DNA of 64,000 nt from a virus: IMG/VR virus record IMGVR_UViG_3300045988_122195, positions 50,227 through 114,226 of that record. One strand, written 5' to 3'. Position numbers and translations under genes: made by a program. Below are positions 3,422-56,830 of this stretch, one piece after another (position 1 is the stretch's first letter; each line of letters starts with the position of its first letter). The notes under the pieces are model-generated. The model worked only from the letters and a program-made list of their open reading frames with translations. It was not told where the DNA came from and searched no databases.

Positions 3422-4432
3422 TTGGTACAGAAAGCTAATACAATTGAGGAATTATTAAAAGGTTGTCCTGTAAATCAAACGATTTGTGATAATTTGATTC
3501 GTGCATGGGCAATTATCAACAATGATAAATATGAGAAAATCATTTGTTCAATTTCAGGCGGTTCAGACAGTGATGTGATGTTAGATATCGTTTGGAGATG
3601 TGACAAAGACAATAAAGTAGATTATGTATGGTTTGATACTGGATTAGAATATCGAGCCACAAAAGAGCATTTAAAATATCTTGAAGAAAAATATGATATT
3701 ACGTTTCATTCTTATAGGGCTATAAAACCTATTCCAACGTCCTGCAAGGAATATGGACAACCGTTTTTATCAAAACAAGTCAGTGAATTTATCCAAAGAT
3801 TACAAAAACATAATTTTCAATGGGAAGATGAAGATTTCAACACATTATATAAGAAATATCCAAAATGTAAGTCTGCCTTAGAGTGGTGGTGTTGTAACAA
3901 AGGTAATGACAGTTGCTTTAATATTACCAGGAACAAATGGTTAAAAGAATTTATGGTTGCTAATCCACCAACATTTAATATTTCAAACAAGTGTTGTAAA
4001 TATGCAAAAAAAGATGTTGCACATAGCATTGTAAAGTATGGAATAGACGGTAAATTATTTGATCTACAGATTATAGGTATTAGGAAAGCTGAAGGTGGTG
4101 CTAGATCAACAGCGTACAAATCATGCTTTGACGACAATAATGACATTGACAATTATAGACCTCTATTCTGGTACAAAGATTCAGATAAAGAAGATTATGA
4201 GAAAGTGTATGGAATTGTTCATAGTGATTGTTATTCGGAATATGGTTTAAAGCGCACTGGTTGCTGTGGTTGCCCTTATGGTAGAGATTTTGAGAATGAA
4301 TTAGATGTAATTAAGAAGTATGAACCTAAACTGTATAAAGCAGTAACAAATATTTTCAAGGATTCTTATGAATATACAAGAAAGTATGTGGAGTTTAGAA
4401 AAATGATGGATGAGAAGGAGAGAATAAGATAA
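3422..4432 (+). CDS. PAPS reductase-like / PP-loop ATPase family protein (paralog of 1575..2855)
   Basis: 336 aa; canonical PP-loop ISGGSDSDVMLDIV; C-terminal CCGCPYG cluster; TTG start preceded by gaggaaag RBS. Confidence 0.7.
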   Translation: MVQKANTIEELLKGCPVNQTICDNLIRAWAIINNDKYEKIICSISGGSDSDVMLDIVWRCDKDNKVDYVWFDTGLEYRATKEHLKYLEEKYDITFHSYRAIKPIPTSCKEYGQPFLSKQVSEFIQRLQKHNFQWEDEDFNTLYKKYPKCKSALEWWCCNKGNDSCFNITRNKWLKEFMVANPPTFNISNKCCKYAKKDVAHSIVKYGIDGKLFDLQIIGIRKAEGGARSTAYKSCFDDNNDIDNYRPLFWYKDSDKEDYEKVYGIVHSDCYSEYGLKRTGCCGCPYGRDFENELDVIKKYEPKLYKAVTNIFKDSYEYTRKYVEFRKMMDEKERIR

Positions 4433-7785: not shown

Positions 7786-8682
7786 ATGGAATTATTAGGA
7801 AGATATAAGAATGGCAATTATGTTACGACTATTCTGAGTGATGGAACGAGAATAAGAGAGACAAATGATGATGAGTTTATTTCTGATCATGCTGAAAACA
7901 TGGATATAAAAATTACGAATGCTTGTTCAGCAGGTTGTCCGTTTTGCCACGAGGGTTCAATGAAAGATGGTAAACATGGAGACATTTTAAACGAAAAGTT
8001 TGTTGACACTTTGTATCCATTTCAGGAGGCAGCAATCGGTGGTGGAAACGTACTTGAACATCCTGATTTAATTCCATTCTTAGAAAAACTCAAAGAAAAG
8101 AAGGTTATTGCAAATATCACAGTTAATCAGGTTCACTTTGAAAAAGAGCAGAAATTGATCAGAAAACTTGTTGATGAAAAATTAATCTATGGACTTGGCG
8201 TATCTCTTGTAAAACCAACAGAAAAATTTATTAATCTTATAAATCAGTATCCTAATGCAGTTGTTCATGTAATCAATGGTGTATTAACTGCGTCTGATGC
8301 GAAGGTTATGGAGAATAACAATATAAAGATGCTTATTCTAGGATACAAACATCTTAGAAGAGGTGATGTTTATTTTAAACATGAGAAAGAAAGAATCGAA
8401 GCAAATCAGAAATGGCTGTATGGGAACTTAGCTGATATTACAAATAAATTCAAGGTTGTAAGTTTTGACAATCTTGCGATTGGGCAGCTTAATGTAAAAA
8501 GATTATTGTCTGAAGACGAATGGGAAGAGTTCTACCAAGGAGAAGACGGAAGTTCAACTTATTACATTGATATGGTAGAGCGTAAATTTGCCAAAAGTTC
8601 AACTGCGCCATTTAATAAAAGGTATGATTTATTGGATTCTGTGGATGAGATGTTTAAAGTGATTCGAAACGAGAATAATTAA
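7786..8682 (+). CDS. radical SAM domain protein
   Basis: 298 aa; CxxxCxxC motif ITNACSAGCPFCHEG near N-terminus; RBS aggagaggtaatgaagaATG. Confidence 0.65.
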   Translation: MELLGRYKNGNYVTTILSDGTRIRETNDDEFISDHAENMDIKITNACSAGCPFCHEGSMKDGKHGDILNEKFVDTLYPFQEAAIGGGNVLEHPDLIPFLEKLKEKKVIANITVNQVHFEKEQKLIRKLVDEKLIYGLGVSLVKPTEKFINLINQYPNAVVHVINGVLTASDAKVMENNNIKMLILGYKHLRRGDVYFKHEKERIEANQKWLYGNLADITNKFKVVSFDNLAIGQLNVKRLLSEDEWEEFYQGEDGSSTYYIDMVERKFAKSSTAPFNKRYDLLDSVDEMFKVIRNENN

Positions 8683-10495: not shown

Positions 10496-11611
10496 ATGAA
10501 GGACATTAAGATTGTAATCGGTTCAAACTTTGGTGATGAAGGCAAAGGTCTTATGGCGGATTATTTCTCTCAAAAACCGAATAGTATTGTTGTGTGTTCT
10601 AATGGTGGAGCGCAAAGAGGACATACTGTAGTTACCTCAACTGGAATCAGACATGTCTTTCATCATTTTGGATCTGGAACTTTTAATGGGGCAGACACAT
10701 ATCTCTCAGAGGATTTTATCTGCAATCCGATTATTTTCAGACAAGAATATAATGAACTAAAACATTTGGGATATTATCCGAACATCTATATAAATCAAAA
10801 CTGTATGGTAACAACCCCATATGATATGATGGCTAATCAAATTATTGAAGAAAATCGTGGAAAGAATAAGCATGGAAGTTGTGGTCTTGGAATTTATGAG
10901 ACAATCAAAAGATATAAAGCCGGAGTAACTACTTTGTATGTCTCCGATTATATCCGAGATTATTACTTAAAGATTTTCAACAGAGAAGGAATTGTCTTAA
11001 CAAAGAAATGGGAAGATTTGTTCAATGATTCAGGAATTTACGATCATTATTTAGAAGATTGGGATTTTATGAACGAAGTAGCAACAACGATTTCTGACGA
11101 ATGTTTTCTCAATGAGTATGAGAATATAGTATTTGAAGCTGCACAAGGTCTTTTACTTGATCAAAATAATCTGAAATATTATCCACATCTTACACCTTCT
11201 AACACAGGAATAAAAAATCCAAAGAAAATAATTGAAAATGTGAAATGGGACGATGATATTAACATTGAGACATGTTATGTGTCAAGGACATATTTAACAA
11301 GACATGGAGCAGGACAATTTCCATCTGAATGTCGCAAGAATCGAATAAATAAGTCAATGTATGATAAGACAAATGTTCCGAATCCATTCCAGGACACATT
11401 AAGATACGGAACGCTTGATTTGAAAGATTTATATATTCGATGTGCTAAGGATGTGATGAATTTTGGAGACAAGAAATCAATTGCTATAACACACTGTAAT
11501 GAATACAAAATTGATGTTGAGGAATTAGAAGATATCTTTGAAGGATGGAATATTTATTATTCTAACGGAGAAACGCACGATGATATGAGGGAGGGCGCTA
11601 TATGGAATTGA
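10496..11611 (+). CDS. adenylosuccinate synthetase (PurA) family protein, C-terminally short; candidate PurZ-like
   Basis: 371 aa; GSNFGDEGKGLMADYF (PurA P-loop GDEGKGK), GGAQRGHT (PurA GGHNAGHT), FEAAQGLLLD (PurA FEGAQGTLLD), PSNT, HGAGQFPSE (PurA GAGPFPTE); lacks about 60 aa of PurA GTP-binding C-terminus. Confidence 0.75.
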   Translation: MKDIKIVIGSNFGDEGKGLMADYFSQKPNSIVVCSNGGAQRGHTVVTSTGIRHVFHHFGSGTFNGADTYLSEDFICNPIIFRQEYNELKHLGYYPNIYINQNCMVTTPYDMMANQIIEENRGKNKHGSCGLGIYETIKRYKAGVTTLYVSDYIRDYYLKIFNREGIVLTKKWEDLFNDSGIYDHYLEDWDFMNEVATTISDECFLNEYENIVFEAAQGLLLDQNNLKYYPHLTPSNTGIKNPKKIIENVKWDDDINIETCYVSRTYLTRHGAGQFPSECRKNRINKSMYDKTNVPNPFQDTLRYGTLDLKDLYIRCAKDVMNFGDKKSIAITHCNEYKIDVEELEDIFEGWNIYYSNGETHDDMREGAIWN

Positions 11612-13040: not shown

Positions 13041-13343
13041 ATGAGCAAGTCAGTATTAGTTATGGACACGCCAGAAACATGTTTGGACTACATGTTTTGT
13101 TTCGAATTAGATGAAGGAATTAACGCTTGTTGTTCTGTTATGTCTGATAAAAATGATAAAAGTCTATGCAGAGATATTCAGTGTGATGGCGGTTATTGTC
13201 AGAGTAAACCAAATTGGTGTCCATTGAAAGAAGTTCCTGAAGAAGAACATAATGATTATAAATATGATGAGTATTGTGACGGTTATGATGATGGTTGGAA
13301 TTCATTAAGAGATAGAATTCTAGGAGAGAATAAGAATGTATAG
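13041..13343 (+). CDS. Cys-rich hypothetical protein
   Basis: 100 aa; CLDYMFCF...CCSVMSDKNDKSLCRDIQCDGGYCQSKPNWCP. Confidence 0.5.
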   Translation: MSKSVLVMDTPETCLDYMFCFELDEGINACCSVMSDKNDKSLCRDIQCDGGYCQSKPNWCPLKEVPEEEHNDYKYDEYCDGYDDGWNSLRDRILGENKNV

Positions 13344-13941
13344 ATATATTGCGGATTTGCACATCGGTTGTACGAATTCATTTGACGCTCGTAAAATAGA
13401 ACATGATGAGATTCTTGTTAAAAATTGGAATTCAGTGGTTAAAAATAATGATATAACGTTTATTCTAGGCGATATTGGCAGATGTGGAAATAACAAAGAC
13501 AATGAGTATTTATGTTCAGTAATCTCAAGACTTAAAGGAAAGAAAATTTTAATAGTTGGAAATCATGACGAATACGGTTTGAAAGATCATAGGGTTAAAC
13601 AGTTATTCGATTCGGTATGTGATTATTTTGAACTTACTGATAATTACAATGGTATCAATCAAAAGCTTGTCCTATCGCATTATCCTATCTTTTCATGGAA
13701 TAGTTGTTACAAAGATACAGTTCTTCTCTATGGTCACACACATGGTAATTTCGATGATGACATCTATCAGGAATCTCTGGAAAAGCTCAGATATAAAGTA
13801 AGACAATTGAATATAGAGAATAAAGAAGTGAAGAAATTCAAGAATCTTCCTTATGCTTATAATGTTGGTGCAATGATGGATTGGATCAATTATTGTCCGA
13901 GAACATGGCAGGAGATTAAGGATATTTATATTTTGAGATAG
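13336..13941 (+). CDS. calcineurin-like metallophosphoesterase
   Basis: 201 aa; motifs ADLHIG (DxH), FILGDIGR (GD), VGNHDE (GNHD/E), GHTHGN (GHxH). Confidence 0.75.
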   Translation: MYRYIADLHIGCTNSFDARKIEHDEILVKNWNSVVKNNDITFILGDIGRCGNNKDNEYLCSVISRLKGKKILIVGNHDEYGLKDHRVKQLFDSVCDYFELTDNYNGINQKLVLSHYPIFSWNSCYKDTVLLYGHTHGNFDDDIYQESLEKLRYKVRQLNIENKEVKKFKNLPYAYNVGAMMDWINYCPRTWQEIKDIYILR

Positions 13942-25065: not shown

Positions 25066-25161
25066 ATTGAAATTTTTCTTTCATTCAGTAGTAATGAATG
25101 CTGCGTGAAAGAGCAAATAATTAACTACATACGAAAGGGAATAAGAGTAATTCTAGATAAT

Positions 25162-25177
25162 ATGCTTACGTAAGCAT
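25162..25177. promoter_or_regulatory. perfect 16-bp palindrome ATGCTTACGTAAGCAT 15 nt upstream of the MTase-like gene
   Basis: Read directly: ATGCTTAC|GTAAGCAT. Confidence 0.4.
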
Positions 25178-25192
25178 TGAAAATAAGGCAAT

Positions 25193-25780
25193 TTGAGCAA
25201 TACAAATGAAAGAAAAACTTCCACTGATGGACTTAGAGTGTTAAGTCTCTGTGGTGGTGTAGAAACTGGATTATACGCATTACAGAAATTGGATATTCCT
25301 GTGAAAGAGTATCATACATATGAGATTCTGCCTGAAGCTATTGCAGTTTCCCAGTACCATTTTCCGTTTGTGGTACATCATGGTGATTTATATGAAACGG
25401 ATTTTAATCAATTCAAAGGATTTGATTTGTTATTAGCAGGAACTTGTTGTCAGAGTTTGAGCAAAATCAGAATAGAAGACAAACAAGTTAACAATGGTTT
25501 AGATGGTAAATCGGGAATTTTCTTTAAAGCCATCGAATGTCTTGAGGCAATTCAGCCAAAATATTTCATGTTTGAAAACGTAATACCGAGTAGAGAAGAG
25601 GATTTAAATACAATGACTAAGTGTATTGGAGTTGATCCTTTACTTATTGACTCTAAAATTTTTAGCATACAATCGCTATTGGACAAGTTTACGATGAGAA
25701 TGGTAAATCAATTCATTTTCACGATCCAAGAACTGCTAAAGCAAGAAGTAAAACATTTCCAGGAGTTGCAAAACCAATGA
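25193..25780 (+). pseudogene. C5-cytosine DNA methyltransferase-like, truncated and possibly frameshifted
   Basis: Motif I-like VLSLCGGVETG, motif IV-like AGTCCQSLS (CCQ in place of PCQ), motif VI FMFENV; only 195 aa, no TRD/motifs IX-X; alternative frame near 25700-25810 reads protein-like YDENGKSIHFHDPRTAKARSKTFPGVAKPMTDQW. Confidence 0.4.
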
Positions 25781-26979: not shown

Positions 26980-27014
26980 ATTAGGAGAGAATATATAAGT
27001 GGAGATGATAATCA

Positions 27015-27362
27015 ATGAACAATCGACAAAGAAAGAAATGGCTGAAGAAACAGGGTTTATATGTAAACCCAAAAGAAACATGGAGTTTGGATGTAACACT
27101 CGCCAAGTATATCATTCCAAGATTAAAGAAATTTAAAGAGCTTAATAATGGTTATCCAGGCATAGAGGAAGTGAACACGCCTGAAAAGTGGGATGAAGCA
27201 TTAGATAAGATGATTCATGCATTTGAGTATGTGGCAAATGAATTTGATTGGTGGGCAGACAATCCGAAATATGATTGTTTTGACGAAGAAAAGAGAAGAC
27301 AAGTAGTAATTAATGAGGGATTACAGTTGTTTGCTAAGTATTATATGAATTTGTGGTGGTAA
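27015..27362 (+). CDS. hypothetical protein
   Basis: 115-aa ORF. Confidence 0.5.
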   Translation: MNNRQRKKWLKKQGLYVNPKETWSLDVTLAKYIIPRLKKFKELNNGYPGIEEVNTPEKWDEALDKMIHAFEYVANEFDWWADNPKYDCFDEEKRRQVVINEGLQLFAKYYMNLWW

Positions 27363-27413
27363 GAGAATAAATGGCGAGTTTCGTTGGAGAATGTTTCTTA
27401 GGAGGTAATGAAA

Positions 27414-28115
27414 ATGTGCAAAAAAAGTAATAAATCAAGATATAGGGGGTTGAGGTTTAATTACAAGATAGATGGAAAAGTATTAATGGATAAATATCAA
27501 ACGATTGATGATTTTCTATCAACAGAATTTCCTAAGAATGATAATCCATTGTCACCTACTCTTAATACAGAGATTACGGGAATTAAATGGAATGGCAGCA
27601 CTATTTCTATTTCCAACAAAATTCACACAGTAAAGGATTTGACTGACTTATTAAGCAAAGAAAATGTAGAAAACATTTTTATTTCAAATAGAGATGTTAG
27701 GTTGCATAAGATTAAACCAAAACATGACGATCTTATCAGAAAGTCCACATATTCCATAGAATATGTACACAGTAAGGTTAAAGATGTTTTGTTTGAAAAA
27801 GACAAGCGAAATGCAAAAGTTGATTTTGATGGAGATTTGATTAAAGGTAATAGTCAACGATATCAGACATTTTTTACAAAAGGCTGTAAATGTTCAGTTT
27901 GTGGAATTGAAGGACAATATTTTGCAAAAGAAAGACATTTACAGGATAAAATTTATCATCTGAATTTGTATGCAGTTGATGATAATGGTGATGAAATTTT
28001 AATGACAAAAGATCATATTTTACCACGTTCAAAAGGTGGTATTAATGATATTAGTAACTATCAAACAATGTGTAAGCTTTGTAATGAAGCAAAAGGTAAC
28101 AAATTAGAAGATTAA
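27414..28115 (+). CDS. HNH endonuclease
   Basis: C-terminal HNH motif DHILPRSKGGINDISNYQTMCKLCNEAKGNK; additional CKCSVCG zinc knuckle. Confidence 0.65.
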   Translation: MCKKSNKSRYRGLRFNYKIDGKVLMDKYQTIDDFLSTEFPKNDNPLSPTLNTEITGIKWNGSTISISNKIHTVKDLTDLLSKENVENIFISNRDVRLHKIKPKHDDLIRKSTYSIEYVHSKVKDVLFEKDKRNAKVDFDGDLIKGNSQRYQTFFTKGCKCSVCGIEGQYFAKERHLQDKIYHLNLYAVDDNGDEILMTKDHILPRSKGGINDISNYQTMCKLCNEAKGNKLED

Positions 28116-28185
28116 ATAAGAAAGGGAAAGAATAGAAAAGTTCCTATAGGATAAAGTGCGCACTACTTACTAAGGTAAGAGGAAC

Positions 28186-29355
28186 TTGGAAAATAAAGAA
28201 AGAGCATTAGCACACGTAGAAAAGATTGAGTGGATCAAGCCGATAGAAGGAGCTGATAATATTGAACTTATTGGAGTTTTGGGGTGGGTTTGTATCGCCA
28301 AAAAGAATGAATTTAACGTAGGAGATATGGCTGTTTATATTGAGATTGACAGCAAATGTCCAGAAACAGATGAAAGATTTGCATTTTTAGCAAATAAGAA
28401 ATTCAAAGTTAAGACTATGAAACTTGGAAAGTTCAAAGTGATTAGTCAGGGATTAGCTTTACCATTGTCACTTTTCCCAGAATTACAGGACAAAAAGATT
28501 GGTGATAATGTTACAGAAGCATTAAAAATTACTTATGTTTCAGAAGAGGATGCCGCAAGAAAGACTAATAAGATTGATCCAAATGCCAAATATAAGTCAA
28601 TGGCAAGGCGTAGACCAAAATTATTTTCAAATCCAATTGTTAGAATGATTATGAGATATAGCATTGGTCGAAAGATTATGTTTATGCTGTTTGGTCGTAA
28701 GAAAGATAATCCAAAGAAATTTCCAGATTGGATTGTTAAGACTGATGAGACTAGAATTGAGAACGCACCATTCTATCTTCAGACTACAGAAAAGTGGATT
28801 AAAACTGAGAAATGCGATGGAACAAGTTGTACATTTGCCGTTGATAGATTGAAGAAAGGAAAGGACAAATTTGACTTTATTGTATGCAGCAGGAATGTAA
28901 GACAGGCTGATAGAGAACAGGATCGTTATCACGAATCAAATATTTATTGGGAATTATCCGATAAATATGATATTGAAAAAATTCTCACACAGTTTGCGAT
29001 AGAGAACAATTATAACAGAGTTGTATTACAAGGTGAAGGTGTTGGTTCAGTTCAGGGTAATCCATATAAATTTACAGAAAATAAGTTGTTTGTATTCAAT
29101 CTGATTATTGATGGTGTAAGAGTCGGAACAATGGAAATGGCTGATTTCTGTAAGAACCACGGTTTAACAAGTGTACCAATTATTGATACGGCTTATGAAC
29201 TCCCAAAGACTATGGAAGAAATGAAGCTTGAAGCTGATGGATATAGCGAATTAAATCCAAAGGTCAAGAGAGAAGGATTTGTATACAGGACACAGAACGG
29301 ACAGCAGAGTTTTAAAAATGTAAGTCGTGAGTATTTGTTAAAACATAATGGATAA
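28186..29355 (+). CDS. ATP-dependent RNA ligase-like nucleotidyltransferase (KxDG motif I, roughly 200-aa N-terminal domain)
   Basis: 389 aa; motif I KTEKCDGTSCTFAVD (K-x-D-G-x-S); TTG start after taaggtaagaggaac. Confidence 0.6.
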   Translation: MENKERALAHVEKIEWIKPIEGADNIELIGVLGWVCIAKKNEFNVGDMAVYIEIDSKCPETDERFAFLANKKFKVKTMKLGKFKVISQGLALPLSLFPELQDKKIGDNVTEALKITYVSEEDAARKTNKIDPNAKYKSMARRRPKLFSNPIVRMIMRYSIGRKIMFMLFGRKKDNPKKFPDWIVKTDETRIENAPFYLQTTEKWIKTEKCDGTSCTFAVDRLKKGKDKFDFIVCSRNVRQADREQDRYHESNIYWELSDKYDIEKILTQFAIENNYNRVVLQGEGVGSVQGNPYKFTENKLFVFNLIIDGVRVGTMEMADFCKNHGLTSVPIIDTAYELPKTMEEMKLEADGYSELNPKVKREGFVYRTQNGQQSFKNVSREYLLKHNG

Positions 29356-29395
29356 TAGGTGATTATGTAATTTTTATGTTTAAAGGAGATTTTAA

Positions 29396-30286
29396 ATGAA
29401 TAAACCAACATTATGGGTTATGGTCGGTTTGTCTGGAAGTGGCAAATCAAGTGTCGCAAAAGAAATTGCAGAGAATAATCCTGATACAGTTACTATATCA
29501 TTAAACAATATTCGTGAAGAATTAACTAGTAAAGTAGAAGATCAATCTAAAAACGAAGAAATATTCAAAGTATTTCACAAAAGAATCCGTGAGGCATTGG
29601 AGAATAATACTAATGTGATTGCTGATGCTACAAACATTACAATGAGGTCAAGACGAGCAATTATTGAAAATATTAAAGGTATTGAATGTCGTAAGATTGC
29701 TTATCTGATTCCAAAACCGTTTGATCAATGTAAGATTGATAACCTGAATAGACAACATCCTGTGCCTAAAGAAGTGTTAGACAAACAGATTAGAAAATTC
29801 CAGATTGTGTTTTATGAGGAAGGTTGGGATCTTATTAGAAGCTGTGGCTTCCTTAGAGATGATGAGATAACAATTCCAGATATATCTTTAAAAATGGAAA
29901 ATTTTGACCAAAAGAATCCACATCACACTATGAGTTTGCTTGAGCATAGTGATTATACATACAAATTGTTCGCTGACAAAGAATATCCAATGAGTTTTCA
30001 ATTAGGAGCGTTGCTTCATGATGTTGGTAAACTATATTGTCAAACTTTTGATGAATCTGGAATTGCTCGTTACCTTGACCATAATTCGATTGGAAGTTAT
30101 GTTATTTTGACAAGTCTTGATAGGTTCTATCATTACGACATCATTGATGCTTGTTTTCTTATCAACTATCATATGATGCCCTTTAATTGGACAACAGAAA
30201 AATCTAAGGAACGTTGGAAGAAAAGGTTTGGAGAATATAAATATCAGATGCTTTTAGATTTTCATGAATGTGATAAAGCGAGGTGA
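29396..30286 (+). CDS. P-loop polynucleotide-kinase-like domain fused to HD-domain phosphohydrolase
   Basis: 296 aa; Walker A VMVGLSGSGKSSVAKE; HD motifs HHTMSLLEHSDY and LGALLHDVGK. Confidence 0.65.
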   Translation: MNKPTLWVMVGLSGSGKSSVAKEIAENNPDTVTISLNNIREELTSKVEDQSKNEEIFKVFHKRIREALENNTNVIADATNITMRSRRAIIENIKGIECRKIAYLIPKPFDQCKIDNLNRQHPVPKEVLDKQIRKFQIVFYEEGWDLIRSCGFLRDDEITIPDISLKMENFDQKNPHHTMSLLEHSDYTYKLFADKEYPMSFQLGALLHDVGKLYCQTFDESGIARYLDHNSIGSYVILTSLDRFYHYDIIDACFLINYHMMPFNWTTEKSKERWKKRFGEYKYQMLLDFHECDKAR

Positions 30287-30639
30287 GACGCATGAGATGT
30301 AATACAGATTTAGAGACTTGGCTGCATGATTTCGAAGATGATATATTTCGTATCTTAGTTTACAGAAAGCCTGGTCAGTACACACCATATGAGATGGAGA
30401 ATAAGTTTAGTGATGAATCGTTGTATGTAAACAATGAGTACAAGAAAGTATTTATTGAAGATGTAATTGAACTACCGGACAAAGATGTTCTGATTGGATT
30501 CAGAGAAGTTCTTGATGTGAATCAACACGAAGATGGGGAATATGAATGCGAACTTGCAGATAGCATTGAATATTATAAGTTATCAGAAATCAAACTGGAA
30601 TGTTTCAAGTGTGATCAAGTGATAGGAGGTGAGTTTTAA
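30283..30639 (+). CDS. hypothetical protein
   Basis: 118 aa; overlaps previous stop (ATGAGATG). Confidence 0.5.
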   Translation: MRRMRCNTDLETWLHDFEDDIFRILVYRKPGQYTPYEMENKFSDESLYVNNEYKKVFIEDVIELPDKDVLIGFREVLDVNQHEDGEYECELADSIEYYKLSEIKLECFKCDQVIGGEF

Positions 30640-31063
30640 TATGGTATCAAGTCAGATTATTGATGTAATCAACGAATTGTGTAGTAAGTTCGGAATTGCA
30701 ATTGATTGGTCACAGAAAAACGTGCAGCCTTATTTGGAAAGTCTTGTGGTAAAAGCTGTAAATTATGAATTATATACGTCTATTATGTGGATTGTAATCG
30801 GAGCAATTCTAATCGGAATAGGTTTATTTTATTTGTCAAAAGCCAATAAGTGTAAGGAGAGATATATAAAATATAAAAAAGATTCCACTGTTGACACTGA
30901 AAGTGATTATACATGTAAAGATTTATACAGAATATTAGGTTGGTTTTTATTTATAACTGCTATCCTTTTTATTATATACAATACAAATGATGTTATTAAA
31001 TGTATTACATTTCCAGATAAAGTTGTGTTTGATATGATTTATAGTTATTTACCAACTAATTAA
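30629..31063 (+). CDS. membrane protein (2-3 TM)
   Basis: 144 aa; TM SIMWIVIGAILIGIGLFYL and ILGWFLFITAILFIIY. Confidence 0.5.
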   Translation: MSFNMVSSQIIDVINELCSKFGIAIDWSQKNVQPYLESLVVKAVNYELYTSIMWIVIGAILIGIGLFYLSKANKCKERYIKYKKDSTVDTESDYTCKDLYRILGWFLFITAILFIIYNTNDVIKCITFPDKVVFDMIYSYLPTN

Positions 31064-31554: not shown

Positions 31555-33135
31555 ATGGTAAATGAGATTATTAATGGACTTGGTGTTTTAGTTCCTGTAG
31601 TGATTGTAGGAGCAGGTGGAATTGGAATTGTTGGTTCTGGATATGTAAAAGCATCGCCAGATAAAGCCTATATCATTTCTGGTTTAAGAAAAGATCCAAA
31701 AGTTCTTATTGGAAAAGCTGGGCTTAAGATTCCATTCTTTGAAAAGAAAGACGAGCTAAATCTTCAGTTAATTCCAATCGATGTAAAAACATCAAGCGCA
31801 GTTCCAACAGCAGATTACATCAACATTAACGTTGATGCAGCAGTAAATGTAAAGGTTAGTAGTGACACAGATAGACTTAAACTTGCAGCAGAGAACTTTC
31901 TTAATAAACCAACTGACTACATTGGACAGGTTGCAAGAGAAGTTCTTGAGGGTAATATGCGTGAAATTGTTGGCAAAATGAACTTGGAAGAAATGGTTTC
32001 TGATCGTCAGAAGTTTGCAGAACTCGTAAAAGAAAATGCTGAACCAGATCTTGCTGCAATGGGACTCGACATTGTGAGCTTCAATGTACAGAATTTTGTT
32101 GATGAAAATGGAGTAATTGAAAATCTTGGTGTTGATAACATTGTTAAAATCCAGAAGAATGCAGCTATTTCAAGAGCTGATAGCGAAAAAGAAATTGCTA
32201 AGGCTCGTGCTATGGCTAAAAAAGAAGCAAATGATGCAGAGGTAGCTTCTGAATTGGAAATTGCAAATGCTCAGGCTGAAGCACAGAAAAAGAAAACAAT
32301 TGTACAGGCTAATGCCGATAGAGAGTCAAGAGAAGCTCAAATTGCAGCAGACACACTTATTGCGCAGAAAGAAAATGAACTTGAAATTAAAAAAGCAGAA
32401 CTTCAGAAAGATGCTGAAACAAAAAAGGCTTCAGCGGATGTAGCTTATAGTATTCAGGAACAAAATGAAAGAAAATCTGTGGAGATTGCAACGGCAGATG
32501 CTGATCTTGCCAAACAGGAAAAAGCTGTAGAGATTAAGGAGAAAGAGATTGCACTTACAGAAAAAACTCTTGAAGCCACTGTAAAGAAACAAGCTGAAGC
32601 AGAAAAATATGCAAAACAGCAGGAAGCAGATGCAAGGCTGTATGAAACACAGAGAAAATCAGAAGCAAGTCTTTTTGAGAGACAGAAAAATGCTGAAGCA
32701 GAGAAGTTTGAGCGTGAGAAAGAAGCTGAAGCTATGAAAGCGACAGCAGAAGCTAACAAATATGCAATGGAACAAGAGGCGGAAGGTATCCGTAGTAAAG
32801 GACAAGCTGAAGCTGATGCAATCAAAGCAAAAGCTCTTGCAGAAGCAGAAGGTATTCAGAAGAAAGCAGAAGCAATGAAACAGATGGGTGAAGCAGCAGT
32901 TCTTGATATGTATTTCAAAGCTATGCCAGAAATCGCTAAGAATATTGCAGAACCTCTTGCCAAAGTTGACAAAATTACAATGTATGGAGATGGAAACTCT
33001 TCAAAATTGATGAAAGATATCATGAACACCCTTAATCAGGTTACAGATGGTATGAAAGAGTCAACTGGAATCGACTTAAATTCTATTCTTGCAGGTTTTG
33101 CAGGTGCTAAAATTGCTGAATCTACAGACAAATAA
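31555..33135 (+). CDS. floT: flotillin (SPFH domain, FloT/YuaG-like)
   Basis: 526 aa; N-terminal hairpin anchor GLGVLVPVVIVGAGGIGIVGSGYV, SPFH core incl. EVLEGNMREIVG and GLDIVSF, long EA-rich coiled coil (AEAEKFEREKEAEAMKA), C-terminal KVDKITMYGDGN; collinear with B. subtilis FloT as recalled. Confidence 0.85.
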   Translation: MVNEIINGLGVLVPVVIVGAGGIGIVGSGYVKASPDKAYIISGLRKDPKVLIGKAGLKIPFFEKKDELNLQLIPIDVKTSSAVPTADYININVDAAVNVKVSSDTDRLKLAAENFLNKPTDYIGQVAREVLEGNMREIVGKMNLEEMVSDRQKFAELVKENAEPDLAAMGLDIVSFNVQNFVDENGVIENLGVDNIVKIQKNAAISRADSEKEIAKARAMAKKEANDAEVASELEIANAQAEAQKKKTIVQANADRESREAQIAADTLIAQKENELEIKKAELQKDAETKKASADVAYSIQEQNERKSVEIATADADLAKQEKAVEIKEKEIALTEKTLEATVKKQAEAEKYAKQQEADARLYETQRKSEASLFERQKNAEAEKFEREKEAEAMKATAEANKYAMEQEAEGIRSKGQAEADAIKAKALAEAEGIQKKAEAMKQMGEAAVLDMYFKAMPEIAKNIAEPLAKVDKITMYGDGNSSKLMKDIMNTLNQVTDGMKESTGIDLNSILAGFAGAKIAESTDK

Positions 33136-35511: not shown

Positions 35512-36149
35512 AGAATATATAGATAGGAAATTATTTCACTGTTTGCTGAAAACTTAGAACTACAATCATTCAGACTTTTGCAAGTATAGCCTGAATAAAA
35601 ATAATAAAGAAACTTGAAAACATCCTAAAGCATAAAAGGTAAGTAGAAAATATGTGAGAATGCTTGATGCACAGTGTCAAGCGTTATATTACAAGATGAC
35701 TGTAAAGAGTAAAGTTCAAATGTCAAGTAGTAAAGCTCAAAATTCAAAGATTATGTTTTGTGTAAAGTTTAAGTAACAAATAGTAAAGATATAAAGTTTT
35801 ATAAAATCTTCGATTAACAGTTTTTCAGTATGATTGTACTTGGCTGTAAGTTGTCTGCGAAGCTGGTAAATGGTGAATTAGTTTATAAGTGTCAGCCTGC
35901 ATAATAATATGCATAGTTGTCGTGTGGGTTGACAAATAAGCACCCAAGGTGATGCGGTACGTTGCACCTGGCTTATATCCAGCGATTCTCCGTTCGACTC
36001 GGAGTGGGTGTACTGTATCTGAATATTCACAGAATGTGTTATTCGTTTCCTTTCTTTCTATGAACATTCTAGTTCAGATGCAATGTTTTTCATAACTTCC
36101 TTTTTTGGGGGTTGGCAACTTACCCTGGAGACAAAAAAGTTGCAAATAA

Positions 36150-37674: not shown

Positions 37675-37744
37675 TGACTGTTAGCTCAGATGGGAGAGTA
37701 TCTATTGCAAGAGAGGGTCGCAGGTTCGAATCCTGTACAGTCAA
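37675..37744 (+). tRNA. tRNA-like element (possible tRNA-Cys GCA or Ala TGC, or pseudo-tRNA) with non-canonical anticodon arm
   Basis: Perfect acceptor TGACTGT/ACAGTCA, D arm GCTC-AGATGGGA-GAGT, canonical T arm GCAGG-TTCGAAT-CCTGT; only 19 nt between D stem and T stem, so no clean 5-bp/7-nt anticodon arm; contains TTGCAA. Confidence 0.45.
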
Positions 37745-38019
37745 CTCGTCGCAGAAGACATTTGATTTTTGCATTCATGTTTTGCACACCTCCTTTCTTA
37801 AAGTGCAAAGTAGGTTGTTAGTTCATTGGTAGAACATCTTATTGAAAAATAATGCAGTCCTGTTCTTTTCGCTTTCTCAACGATGTAATGCATTATAATA
37901 GGAAGAAACACGTTCGAGTCGTGTACAATCTATTAGTCTTGGTTGACTTACCACTTTCAAACGAGGACTTAAAATTCGGTAGTAAAGTGGAGAATAATAT
38001 TAATAGGTGGTGAAAAATT

Positions 38020-54387: not shown

Positions 54388-54885
54388 ATGAATACATTAA
54401 TGAGTTATTTATTACAACTAGACACAGTGATTTTCTTTGATGTAGATGGAGTATTAGCACCGTATGAATTTGGTGTTAATAAACATTGTATTGATGACGA
54501 AGAATGGGATAGAAAAATGGCAGCAGGAGAAGATATGTATTCTACTGTATCTCCAATTAAATTATTCCAAAATTTTATTGAAAGAAAAGGAACGGATAAT
54601 GTATATGTTTGTTCTAAAGCATCGACCGAAGAGTGGGATTCAAAGCTTAAGTTCTGTTATGACGGTTATGGAATTCCAAAAGACCACATTATTAGAACAT
54701 CATCAAAGCCAGAGAAAGTTGAGGTTTTAAAAAATTTTGCAAAGAAACATAACATTCCAGAGAATAAAATCGCAATGGTAGAAGATACAACAGAAACATT
54801 AGATATGATTTTTAATAATACAGATTGTGCAACAGTGCATGTATCTTCGTTTCTTGATTATAACGATGAGGTAATTTATGAATAG
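54388..54885 (+). CDS. HAD-superfamily hydrolase (nucleotidase-like)
   Basis: 165 aa; HAD motif I VIFFDVDGVLAPYE. Confidence 0.55.
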   Translation: MNTLMSYLLQLDTVIFFDVDGVLAPYEFGVNKHCIDDEEWDRKMAAGEDMYSTVSPIKLFQNFIERKGTDNVYVCSKASTEEWDSKLKFCYDGYGIPKDHIIRTSSKPEKVEVLKNFAKKHNIPENKIAMVEDTTETLDMIFNNTDCATVHVSSFLDYNDEVIYE

Positions 54886-56830
54886 AGTAGATAGAATTAA
54901 AGAATTAATTTCAACACTTAACAAAGCATCAGATGCTTACTATAACAGTGGTAATCCTATTATGACAGACTATGAATGGGATAACTTATACGATGAGCTT
55001 GTAAAATTAGAAGAAAAAACTGGCGTTGTTTATCTCAATAGTCCTACACAAATTGTAGGATATGAGGTCAAAACAAAACTTGAGAAAGTAACACATTCAC
55101 ATCCAATGCTTTCTCTTGGCAAAACAAAATCCGTTAATGATTTAGTGAAATTTTCTAATGGAAAAGATTGCATTATTTCACTTAAGATGGACGGTCTTAC
55201 GGTTTTAAATACATATGATGGTTGTAAATTAATTCAGAGTGAGACTAGAGGAAATGGCGAGGTTGGGGAATTGATTACTCACAACGCTAGAGTATTCGAT
55301 AATTTACCTGTATCTATTGATGTGGATAAGAAGTTTGAGATTGAGGGCGAAGCAATTATCACAAAAGAAGACTTCTATAATATCAATTTAAAACTTAAAG
55401 ATGGTGAAAAATATAAGAATCCTCGTAACTTGGCAAGTGGATCAGTTAGACAGCTAGACAGTAAAATTGCAAAAGACCGCCATGTAAAATTTGTTGCTTG
55501 GAAGATCCCTTATGGATTTACAAGATTTACGGATGGGTTCAAATTCGCAGAAGAATTAGGTTTTGACGTTGTTCCTTATTCGAAATATAACAGCAAAACA
55601 GATGATATCAATGTGATTATCGAGTATTTAAAAGACCTTGCAGATGTAAAAGGTTATCCTATTGATGGTCTTGTCATTACATATGACAATGTAGAATATG
55701 GCAAATCACTTGGTATGACAGGACATCACCCTAGACATTCATTGGCATTTAAGTTTTACGATGAAGAAGAAGTTACTATATTAAAAGATATTGAATGGGG
55801 AATGGGTAAAACAGGACAACTTACACCAGTAGCAATCTTTGATGATGTAGAAATTGATGGTACAACAGTCAATAGAGCGTCACTTCATAATGTATCAATT
55901 CTCAAAGAATTACAACTTGGTATTTGTGATGAAGTTACAGTATATAAGGCAAACCAAATAATTCCTCAATTACGAGAAAATCTTACAAAAAGTAATACAG
56001 TTACAATCCCATCAACTTGTCCTATTTGTGGAGAACCTACAAAAATTATAAAAGATAATGATTCAGAAGTTCTCATGTGTACAAATGATAATTGTGCAGG
56101 TAAGCTTCTTGGCAAACTTTGTCATGCTGTAAGCAAGAATTCACTTAATATCGAAGGCTTATCTGAAGCTACAATTCAAAAATTCATTAATCTTGGTTGG
56201 TTAAAATCAATTAAAGATATCTATAATTTATCCGAGCATTTATCCGAGATGTATAAACTTGAAGGGTTTGGCAAAAAATCAGTAGACAAACTGCTTAATT
56301 CTATTGAAGATAGTAGAAATACAGACTTGGTTAAATATATTTATGCACAGTCAATTCCTTTAATTGGACACACAGCAAGTAAAGCTATCTCAAAAATGTG
56401 CGATGGTGACTTGAATACATTCGTTCAGCATATGATATCAAAAGGTGCAAATGCTTTTGGAAAGATTGATGGTATTGGTTCAGAAATGATTAAATCTCTT
56501 GAAAAATGGTGGGATATTAATTATTTAGAGTTTGTCGATACCGCAACAATATTTACATTTAAAAAGAAAGAAACAGTTAATGTATTAGGATCAGATCTAA
56601 CTGGCAAAGTGTTTGTCATTACCGGAAGTCTTACTCAGTTCAGAAATCGTGATGAGATGAAAGAAAGAATTGAATCTCTTGGTGGAAAAGTGTCTGGAAG
56701 CGTATCTGCTAAAACAACTGCATTAATCAATAATGATATTGAATCTACTAGCAGCAAGAATAAAAAAGCAAAACAATTAAACGTTCCAATCCTTACAGAG
56801 AATATGTTTATTGAAAAGTATTTACAGTAA
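54878..56830 (+). CDS. ligA: NAD-dependent DNA ligase LigA
   Basis: 650 aa; adenylation motif I ISLKMDGLTV (KxDG), Zn finger CPICGEP...C..NC, HhH region, C-terminal BRCT FVITGSLTQF. Confidence 0.85.
   Translation: MNRVDRIKELISTLNKASDAYYNSGNPIMTDYEWDNLYDELVKLEEKTGVVYLNSPTQIVGYEVKTKLEKVTHSHPMLSLGKTKSVNDLVKFSNGKDCIISLKMDGLTVLNTYDGCKLIQSETRGNGEVGELITHNARVFDNLPVSIDVDKKFEIEGEAIITKEDFYNINLKLKDGEKYKNPRNLASGSVRQLDSKIAKDRHVKFVAWKIPYGFTRFTDGFKFAEELGFDVVPYSKYNSKTDDINVIIEYLKDLADVKGYPIDGLVITYDNVEYGKSLGMTGHHPRHSLAFKFYDEEEVTILKDIEWGMGKTGQLTPVAIFDDVEIDGTTVNRASLHNVSILKELQLGICDEVTVYKANQIIPQLRENLTKSNTVTIPSTCPICGEPTKIIKDNDSEVLMCTNDNCAGKLLGKLCHAVSKNSLNIEGLSEATIQKFINLGWLKSIKDIYNLSEHLSEMYKLEGFGKKSVDKLLNSIEDSRNTDLVKYIYAQSIPLIGHTASKAISKMCDGDLNTFVQHMISKGANAFGKIDGIGSEMIKSLEKWWDINYLEFVDTATIFTFKKKETVNVLGSDLTGKVFVITGSLTQFRNRDEMKERIESLGGKVSGSVSAKTTALINNDIESTSSKNKKAKQLNVPILTENMFIEKYLQ

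Follow-up and report, generated by a model that had tools for sequence, protein, structure and literature searches.

Here we describe a cassette predicted to heal and seal broken RNA ends, found in a stretch of 64,000 nucleotides (nt) of gut phage DNA (positions 50,227 to 114,226 of IMG/VR record IMGVR_UViG_3300045988_122195). This whole stretch is called the window, and coordinates are given in its numbering. In the reading that we favour with moderate confidence, an RNA ligase and the product of the following gene, a polynucleotide kinase-HD fusion (Pnk-HD), form a two-gene RNA end-healing and sealing module, the HNH endonuclease gene in front of them is a passenger, and the kinase is impaired in this phage. 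We observed family assignments, gene linkage, mosaic boundaries and residue states, and it is from these that we predict every enzymatic activity, the substrate and the biological role. An original prediction, made from the sequence of the window, had proposed a cassette of an HNH endonuclease, a ligase with a KxDG motif and a kinase-HD fusion, and the three open reading frames (ORFs) indeed lie on the + strand where it had placed them, with lengths given in amino acids (aa):

27408-28115, + strand: HNH endonuclease ORF, 235 aa
28186-29355, + strand: RNA ligase ORF, 389 aa, with a TTG start
29396-30286, + strand: kinase-HD (Pnk-HD) ORF, 296 aa

The intergenic gaps are 70 nt between HNH and ligase and 40 nt between ligase and Pnk-HD. 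The E-values of their profile matches, given below, lie well outside chance.

Linkage provides the strongest evidence in our analysis. We compared 91 loci that had sufficient upstream sequence, taken from IMG/VR, ENA, Logan and NCBI; in 82 of them, an RNA ligase gene stands directly upstream of Pnk-HD. These partner ligases belong to three lineages that share no significant BLAST similarity with one another:

LigA: partner ligase lineage, the window type
LigB: partner ligase lineage, 439 aa, 53% identical to the vB_BcoS-136 ligase, with a weak OB plus RNA_ligase signature
Rnl1 (T4 RnlA) type: partner ligase lineage

Similarly, in the Bacillus phages Tsamsa, PK-3 and vB_BcoS-136 an RNA ligase gene immediately precedes Pnk-HD. 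The kinase-then-HD fusion itself, 28-30% identical over its full length and immediately following an RNA ligase, is found in Tsamsa (gp174-gp175), PK-3, vB_BcoS-136 and PJN02. The partner ligase of Tsamsa and PK-3 is of the Rnl1 (T4 RnlA) type whereas that of the window is of the Rnl5 type, and the Bacillus phage proteins have a canonical SSDxxR kinase site whereas the window site is noncanonical. Because the pairing persists while the ligase lineage changes, these comparisons argue for a functional heal-and-seal partnership of ligase and Pnk-HD. The surroundings of the cassette in the Bacillus phages (922-1527 of the PK-3 locus L001; 1-301 of the PJN02 locus L092) include a nucleotidyltransferase, a subtilisin-like protease, ClpP, an ATP-dependent DNA ligase and a second RNA ligase.

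The ligase matches the Pfam families PHA02142 OB domain (PF21189; 8.2e-24, aa 8-94) and RNA_ligase (PF09414; 2.3e-18, aa 202-377), as well as phrog_968, annotated 'RNA ligase', in PHROGs (3e-63). Its best relative of solved structure is NgrRnl of Naegleria gruberi (5cot, E=2.2e-33), which is aligned through both its OB and nucleotidyltransferase domains, the OB region matching NgrRnl residues 5-122 with 66.7 bits. The domains and motifs are as follows:

aa 6-117 of the ligase: OB domain, separated by a basic linker of ~60 aa from the nucleotidyltransferase domain
28810-28827, + strand: ligase motif I, K209-CDGTS (aa 209-214), aligned with NgrRnl KLDG
29026-29046, + strand: ligase LQGEGVG, aligned with NgrRnl LQGEIIG
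29269-29289, + strand: ligase REGFVYR, aligned with NgrRnl REGLVFK
29311-29325, + strand: ligase FKNVS, aligned with NgrRnl FKAIS

Equivalents of motifs I, III, IV and V are thus all present in this alignment, and there is no C-terminal appendage, ligase residue 388 of 389 aligning with NgrRnl chain residue 338 of 340. All significant PDB matches are to the RNA ligase NgrRnl, and no DNA-ligase profile matched in Pfam, where PHA02142 and RNA_ligase were the only families found; the protein therefore groups with RNA ligases and not with ATP-dependent DNA ligases, the alternative that had been raised for it. By these alignments, it is an Rnl5-family ATP-dependent RNA ligase. Enzymes of this family combine an N-terminal OB domain with a nucleotidyltransferase domain and seal 3'-OH/5'-PO4 nicks if the 3'-OH strand is RNA (PMC4408790). 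The window ligase shares with NgrRnl and with DraRnl of Deinococcus radiodurans this domain order, the KxDG motif I and the lack of a C-terminal appendage (PMC4408790). It differs from them in the basic interdomain insert of ~60 aa, which is peculiar to its lineage and missing from NgrRnl, and in the linkage of its gene to an end-healing gene. In addition, it scores 96.5 bits against the equivalog model TIGR02306 (RNA_lig_DRB0094), under the NCBIfam cut-off of 151.15, which makes it a homolog of DRB0094 and not an equivalog. The N-terminal region of about 200 aa announced by the original prediction does exist, but it is not a single domain, as it consists of the OB domain of ~117 aa and the linker.

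Pnk-HD combines two catalytic domains in one polypeptide:

29396-29839, + strand: polynucleotide-5'-kinase-type P-loop domain, aa 1-148, with the P-loop at 29426-29449
29903-30286, + strand: HD phosphohydrolase domain, aa ~170-296, with H177, H184, H208-D209, K212, H229, H259 and D293

The kinase domain matches Pfam AAA_33 (1.6e-20), carries the P-loop GLSGSGKS at aa 11-18, and is closest to known polynucleotide 5'-kinases in both sequence and fold, its nearest sequence relative being the kinase domain of Clostridium thermocellum Pnkp (9e-10). The C-terminal half contains the motifs PHHT, LEHS and LLHDVGK (aa 206-212). On the window protein alone, the Pfam HD match has an E-value of 0.0025 and stays under the gathering score; the same profile is matched by 20 of 23 family members, the lowest E-value being 1.1e-08. 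Residues H184, H208-D209, H229, H259 and D293 are invariant or nearly so among 116 close relatives and 145 broad representatives, and H177 and K212 show a similar constancy across the family. When a profile of the HD half was compared with the PDB, the best match was the HD region of the Aquifex class II tRNA nucleotidyltransferase (3wfp; E=1e-10), followed by PhnZ and Cas3-HD. RelA/SpoT (p)ppGpp hydrolases gave no match to this domain in Pfam, NCBIfam or the PDB profile search (E<=10), nor did Pnk-HD match any HAD or DxDxT phosphatase. Thus, the fusion does not group with (p)ppGpp hydrolases, a possibility that had been left standing, and the end-healing phosphatase domain is of the HD type rather than the HAD type, as had been proposed. 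Class II tRNA nucleotidyltransferases (the E. coli CCA-adding and the Aquifex A-adding enzyme, 3wfp) are the closest solved relatives of the window HD domain; in them the HD domain is fused to a Pol-beta nucleotidyltransferase, whereas in the window it is fused to a polynucleotide kinase. A secondary account of the E. coli enzyme has its HD domain stripping 2',3'-cyclic phosphate from tRNA 3' ends (PMC6961547, citing Yakunin 2004).

A similar fusion was described in Runella slithyformis by Munir and Shuman in 2017. In a secondary account, HD-Pnk consists of an HD 2',3'-phosphoesterase and a P-loop 5'-OH kinase, is encoded beside a ligase gene with abutting or overlapping ORFs, and is presented as a DNA/RNA end-healing enzyme, and its putative partner ligase adenylylates but sealed none of the substrates tried (PMC6097658). 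As far as that description goes, the window protein likewise unites HD and Pnk in one polypeptide next to a ligase; it differs in having the kinase before the HD domain, in the Rnl5 type of its partner and in a kinase that lacks the general-base Asp. Our comparison with the Runella protein is drawn from its description, and the phage family phrog_6931, which has the HD-then-kinase order of the characterised Runella enzyme, served as the sequence proxy. This family is matched in the opposite order, with window kinase aa 2-147 on positions 183-336 and HD aa ~176-294 on positions 38-152. Because both halves match in reverse order, the window Pnk-HD is, by sequence, a domain-order-swapped relative of the HD-Pnk type. 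The ORFs scanned near the cassette included no Tpt1 or methyltransferase-HIT genes.

The HNH gene behaves differently from its two neighbours. Its product matches HNH_5 (1.7e-11) and HNH (3.3e-09) in Pfam, both confined to residues 199-234; the ~130 N-terminal aa had no match from which a function could be assigned, and a structure search returned weak neighbours only (McrA, phage GVE2 HNH and Cas9 HNH). The ribosome-binding site favours the second ATG, at 27414, which is the more likely true start. The motifs are:

aa 162-165 and 222-225 of the HNH protein: Zn CxxC pairs
aa 202-226 of the HNH protein: catalytic DH...N...N

Residues C162, C165, H203, N217, C222, C225 and N226 are invariant in 30 homologs. 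The gene is present, with one copy per locus, in 52 of the 82 ligase-bearing loci (absent in 30) and in none of the 9 ligase-less ones, and it is 82% identical between phages with unrelated ligases and 61%-identical Pnk-HD. In LigA loci devoid of HNH, DNA similarity to the window runs from 28178-28197 to ~30284, which is exactly ligase plus Pnk-HD, and a small ORF of ~90 aa occupies the HNH position. In the closest relatives, whose flanks are 88-100% identical to the window, similarity ends at 27363 and restarts at 29395, with a 174-aa ORF in between; these clean breaks define HNH and ligase as one exchangeable segment:

27364-29394, no strand assigned: exchangeable HNH + ligase segment, from blastn against L165, L166 and L167

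The replacement ORF, of 174-184 aa, lies directly upstream of Pnk-HD (L165 2977-3501, L166 2947-3501, and L167-L170), and its 174-aa version had no informative match in Pfam, PHROG or PDB. In Bacillus phage PJN02, a homing endonuclease unrelated to the window HNH sits between ligase and Pnk-HD. From these patterns we read the HNH as a freestanding homing-type endonuclease, tied to the ligase gene and outside the repair chemistry, that probably drives the swapping of the [HNH+ligase] segment between phages. The view that HNH is an integral third component of the cassette finds no support in this comparison, as the gene is facultative, is missing from 30 of 82 ligase loci and swaps out together with the ligase.

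The kinase of the window phage departs from its family at the acceptor site:

29498-29515, + strand: acceptor-site motif S35-L36-N37-N38-I39-R40 (family consensus S-S-D-x-I-R)

Here Asn37 (codon AAC, 29504-29506) replaces the general-base Asp (CthPnk Asp38 / T4 Asp35), and of the two residues that contact the acceptor phosphate (CthPnk Arg41 and Ser37), Arg40 is kept and the Ser has become Leu36. The CthPnk D38N mutant binds its substrates without catalysis (PMC3902929). Since Leu36 and Asn37 stand in place of Ser and Asp, and Asn37 is equivalent to this dead mutant, 5'-phosphorylation is probably crippled in the window phage, and the working 5'-kinase implied by the original prediction is hard to maintain for this copy. 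Position 37 is Asp in 141 of 145 broad-family representatives, and Asp and Arg occur together in 137 of them. Both are found together in 61 of the 116 close relatives, where Asp is changed to Asn in 21 and Arg to Gly, Cys or His in 37. When a neighbour-joining tree is made from the remainder of the protein, acceptor positions 37 and 40 require 17 and 23 changes on it, where the median is 7 and the other catalytic residues require 0-3; recombination may contribute to this scatter. Two descriptions of the pattern were rejected. Hypermutation in the style of diversity-generating retroelements does not fit, as the codon changes are not adenine-specific (TCA/TTA, GAC/AAC, CGT/GGT/TGT/CAT) and only 4 codons vary. 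Nor are positions 37 and 40 the most variable of the protein, their entropy ranking 144th and 70th, though they are strongly homoplasious.

The state of the site goes together with the presence of a ligase. An intact gene with a canonical site is found at 71 of the 82 ligase-bearing loci versus 2 of the 9 ligase-less ones (Fisher p=1e-4), a difference that is suggestive only, as the loci are not independent and the sample is partly selected. Six non-canonical alleles picked blind to their context were all without a ligase. In the window, an intact Rnl5 ligase thus stands next to a Pnk-HD allele such as is typically found in genomes without a ligase. One could speculate that the cassette is an accessory module in partial decay, left behind by horizontal transfer and unselected here, with Asn37 as a step toward a pseudogene. 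Such decay would agree with the non-canonical acceptor sites in 7 of 9 ligase-less loci versus 11 of 82 ligase-bearing ones, and with the split or stop-containing Pnk-HD genes of several lineages (L089-91, with 16 contigs, L012, L053, L062 and L066). We consider it very unlikely: the three ORFs of the window are all intact, the ligase identity of 92-98% across phages with ~60%-identical Pnk-HD speaks against it, and 54 non-canonical alleles match the canonical ones in how well the P-loop, DATN, Arg86/87, Arg119 and the entire HD site are conserved. Because the rest of the kinase domain is fully conserved in the Asn37 alleles, these look unlike the products of simple decay. The split gene of L089-L091 (L089 5742-6669), seen in 16 independent contigs, consists of ORFs of 88 and 222 aa with an 8-nt overlap, which would reflect either a fixed frameshift or a programmed one.

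It is also tempting to speculate that Pnk-HD has been repurposed in a subclade. In this scenario, which we regard as doubtful, the acceptor site has repeatedly gone off (Ser36Leu, Asp37Asn, Arg40Gly/Cys/His) while the nucleoside triphosphate (NTP) and HD sites have stayed under purifying selection, mostly in ligase-less genomes, and the protein would be a ligase-independent healer of 3' ends. For instance, its HD domain would strip 2',3'-cyclic phosphate from damaged tRNA 3' ends for the host CCA-adding enzyme to rebuild, and the dead kinase would serve to bind RNA ends or NTP. On this view, the window phage would have become a chimera only recently, when HNH drove the copying of an [HNH+Rnl5 ligase] segment to a place beside a kinase-dead allele.

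Returning to the two-gene module, the HD domain would hydrolyse a 2',3'-cyclic or 3'-phosphate to leave a 3'-OH, the P-loop domain, in the family as a whole, would phosphorylate the 5'-OH, and the ligase would seal the resulting 3'-OH/5'-PO4 nick through a Lys209-AMP intermediate. In the window phage, the module may do only the 3'-end healing and the sealing of ends that are already 5'-phosphorylated. The preference of Rnl5 enzymes for nicks in duplexes suggests, by analogy, a structured RNA such as tRNA or rRNA as the substrate. Healing and sealing of RNA is a recognised phage answer to host ribonuclease defences, and an anti-tRNase counter-defence role is plausible for the cassette, as it would fit both what is known of phage RNA repair (PMC7824862) and its accessory, mosaic behaviour. 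A PADLOC scan returned weak generic matches only. The phage also encodes tRNAs of its own, 5.6-7.4 kb downstream of the cassette:

35940-36013, + strand: tRNA-Ile(UAU), from ARAGORN, without an Rfam match at gathering score
37439-37521, + strand: tRNA-Leu(UAA), from ARAGORN, confirmed as tRNA by Rfam
37675-37745, + strand: third tRNA with an abnormal two-base anticodon 'gc', from ARAGORN, confirmed as tRNA by Rfam

Just upstream of them, Rfam places a RAGATH-27 RNA at 35535-35618 (+ strand), exactly at the gathering score (76.1 bits, E=1.3e-08).

The original prediction had gone further and likened the cassette to T4 tRNA repair. In its complete form, this would require that the three genes cooperate, that the kinase is active despite Asn37, and that together with the phage tRNAs they counter an anticodon nuclease. 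Part of this logic stands: the ligase, the HD domain and the linkage (82 of 91 loci, three ligase lineages) fit a heal-and-seal pathway, the phage does encode tRNAs, and HNH occurs only beside ligases, HNH-ligase fusions being known elsewhere (PMC7824862). A role for HNH and a working kinase do not follow from our data. The window phosphatase is of the HD type, not the DxDxT/HAD type of T4 Pnkp, and the ligase, compared with T4 Rnl1 and Rnl2, is an Rnl5 enzyme with an N-terminal OB and no C-terminal domain, encoded by a gene adjacent to that of its partner. The Asn at the general base corresponds to inactive CthPnk D38N, the Ser36 that contacts the acceptor phosphate is lost as well, and 30 of 82 ligase-bearing loci lack HNH. 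Moreover, the tRNAs lie at a distance, and Ile-UAU and Leu-UAA fit codon supply in a genome of 32% G+C content (GC) equally well, so that they may simply serve A/U-rich codons. A complete T4-like pathway is therefore unlikely in our view.

Several observations weigh against the two-gene module itself. We know of no host nuclease for the cassette, and the searchable literature holds no report of activity for any member of this Pnk-HD family. Promoter and terminator scans of the window stayed at chance level and were uninformative. The conservation of the non-canonical alleles suggests that their kinase domain may still act somehow. HNH always adjoins a ligase and keeps its catalytic residues, which makes a functional partnership possible, and HNH-Rnl2 fusions noted in jumbo phages have been interpreted as an offensive add-on (PMC7824862). 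In addition, Rnl5 ligases are without an established physiological substrate, and a Deinococcus Rnl5 knockout has a DNA-repair phenotype, being radiation-sensitive with slowed genome reassembly (PMC5397189).

A role centred on DNA, with which this knockout phenotype would agree, is a further reading, in which the Rnl5 ligase and Pnk-HD would mend nicks in phage DNA that carry ribonucleotides on the 3' side, as repair intermediates primed or patched with RNA do. Rnl5 enzymes require RNA solely in the 3'-OH strand (PMC4408790), the Runella enzyme is called a healer of both DNA and RNA ends in the description cited above, and the cassette lies ~10 kb upstream of the replication genes. All of these would suit such a role. 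However, the phage already has an NAD-dependent DNA ligase (54878-56830), apart from its RNA ligase, and a RecJ-like nuclease, the nearest solved relative of the HD domain belongs to a tRNA enzyme, in some relatives the partner of Pnk-HD is an Rnl1-type ligase, the kind used in T4 tRNA repair, and close relatives vary in the cassette and can do without it. We thus find the DNA-centred role quite unlikely.

The kinase-HD fusion had been called uncommon, and our searches contradict this. Among 1.84 billion cluster representatives there were 513 matches at E<1e-30, nearly all of them end-to-end at ~300 aa, so that the family comprises at least 513 clusters at 50% identity, spread over gut phages, Bacillus phages and Lachnospiraceae genomes; close relatives of the window protein make up 719 clusters at 90% identity. 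The fusion also occurs, with 27-30% identity, in cultured Bacillus phages (Tsamsa, PK-3, vB_BcoS-136, PJN02 and others), where its annotation is polynucleotide kinase, AAA ATPase or hypothetical. When the HD domain was searched by itself in a set of 5.8 billion proteins, it recovered solely truncated gene calls from the Pnk-HD family. Biochemical study has so far covered the T4 (HAD-type) pathway and a few bacterial systems only, and this large family has no characterised member in the searchable literature; its genes, mostly annotated 'AAA ATPase' or 'hypothetical', could be renamed. Interchangeable ligases, a ligase-linked homing endonuclease and natural kinase-dead alleles were unexpected, and these alleles, enriched in ligase-less genomes, offer a test of the individual end-healing steps and of a ligase-independent HD job.

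The window has a GC of 30-36%, and its + strand holds 42 of the 43 ORFs of at least 150 aa. Megablast of 27000-30700 against 50,697 phage records gave no match, by which the window phage is without a close cultured relative. Full-length Pnk-HD stands beside a 74-79%-identical ligase in Konateibacter massiliensis and in a Lacrimispora metagenome-assembled genome, both Lachnospiraceae, and a shortened gene call is named in Lachnospiraceae bacterium 2_1_58FAA; because of these copies, the host of the window phage is probably a gut Lachnospiraceae. In Konateibacter massiliensis (L094 4205-5005) and in locus L093, likewise of a Lachnospiraceae genome, a 266-aa ORF without a Pfam match lies between the LigA-type ligase and Pnk-HD. 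Downstream in the window, the Pnk-HD stop codon is shared, through a 4-nt overlap (GTGA), with a 118-aa ORF at 30283-30639 (+ strand). This ORF had no family match in profile scans and is kept only in the nearest relatives, for which reason it is probably outside the repair module.

Other genes of the window deserve mention. A flotillin/Band_7 protein of 526 aa is encoded at 31555-33135 (+ strand); its homolog in close relatives has 286 aa and follows a 47-aa ORF. Before the cassette, a C5 DNA methylase-like ORF at 25193-25780 (+ strand) has 195 aa in the window and 137-546 aa in relatives, and blastn finds a short inverted match at 25069-25221; this gene may be truncated or rearranged. At 10496-11611 (+ strand) lies a short, divergent member of the adenylosuccinate-synthetase family (371 aa; Pfam 7e-38; best PDB match cellular PurA, 1e-18) that might serve a modified purine in the manner of PurZ. 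Finally, the upstream ORFs at 1575-2855, 3422-4432, 7786-8682 and 13336-13941 (all + strand) encode two PAPS-reductase-like proteins, one radical-SAM-like protein, which scores under the Pfam gathering threshold, and one calcineurin-like phosphoesterase, and these genes may form a nucleotide or DNA modification module.

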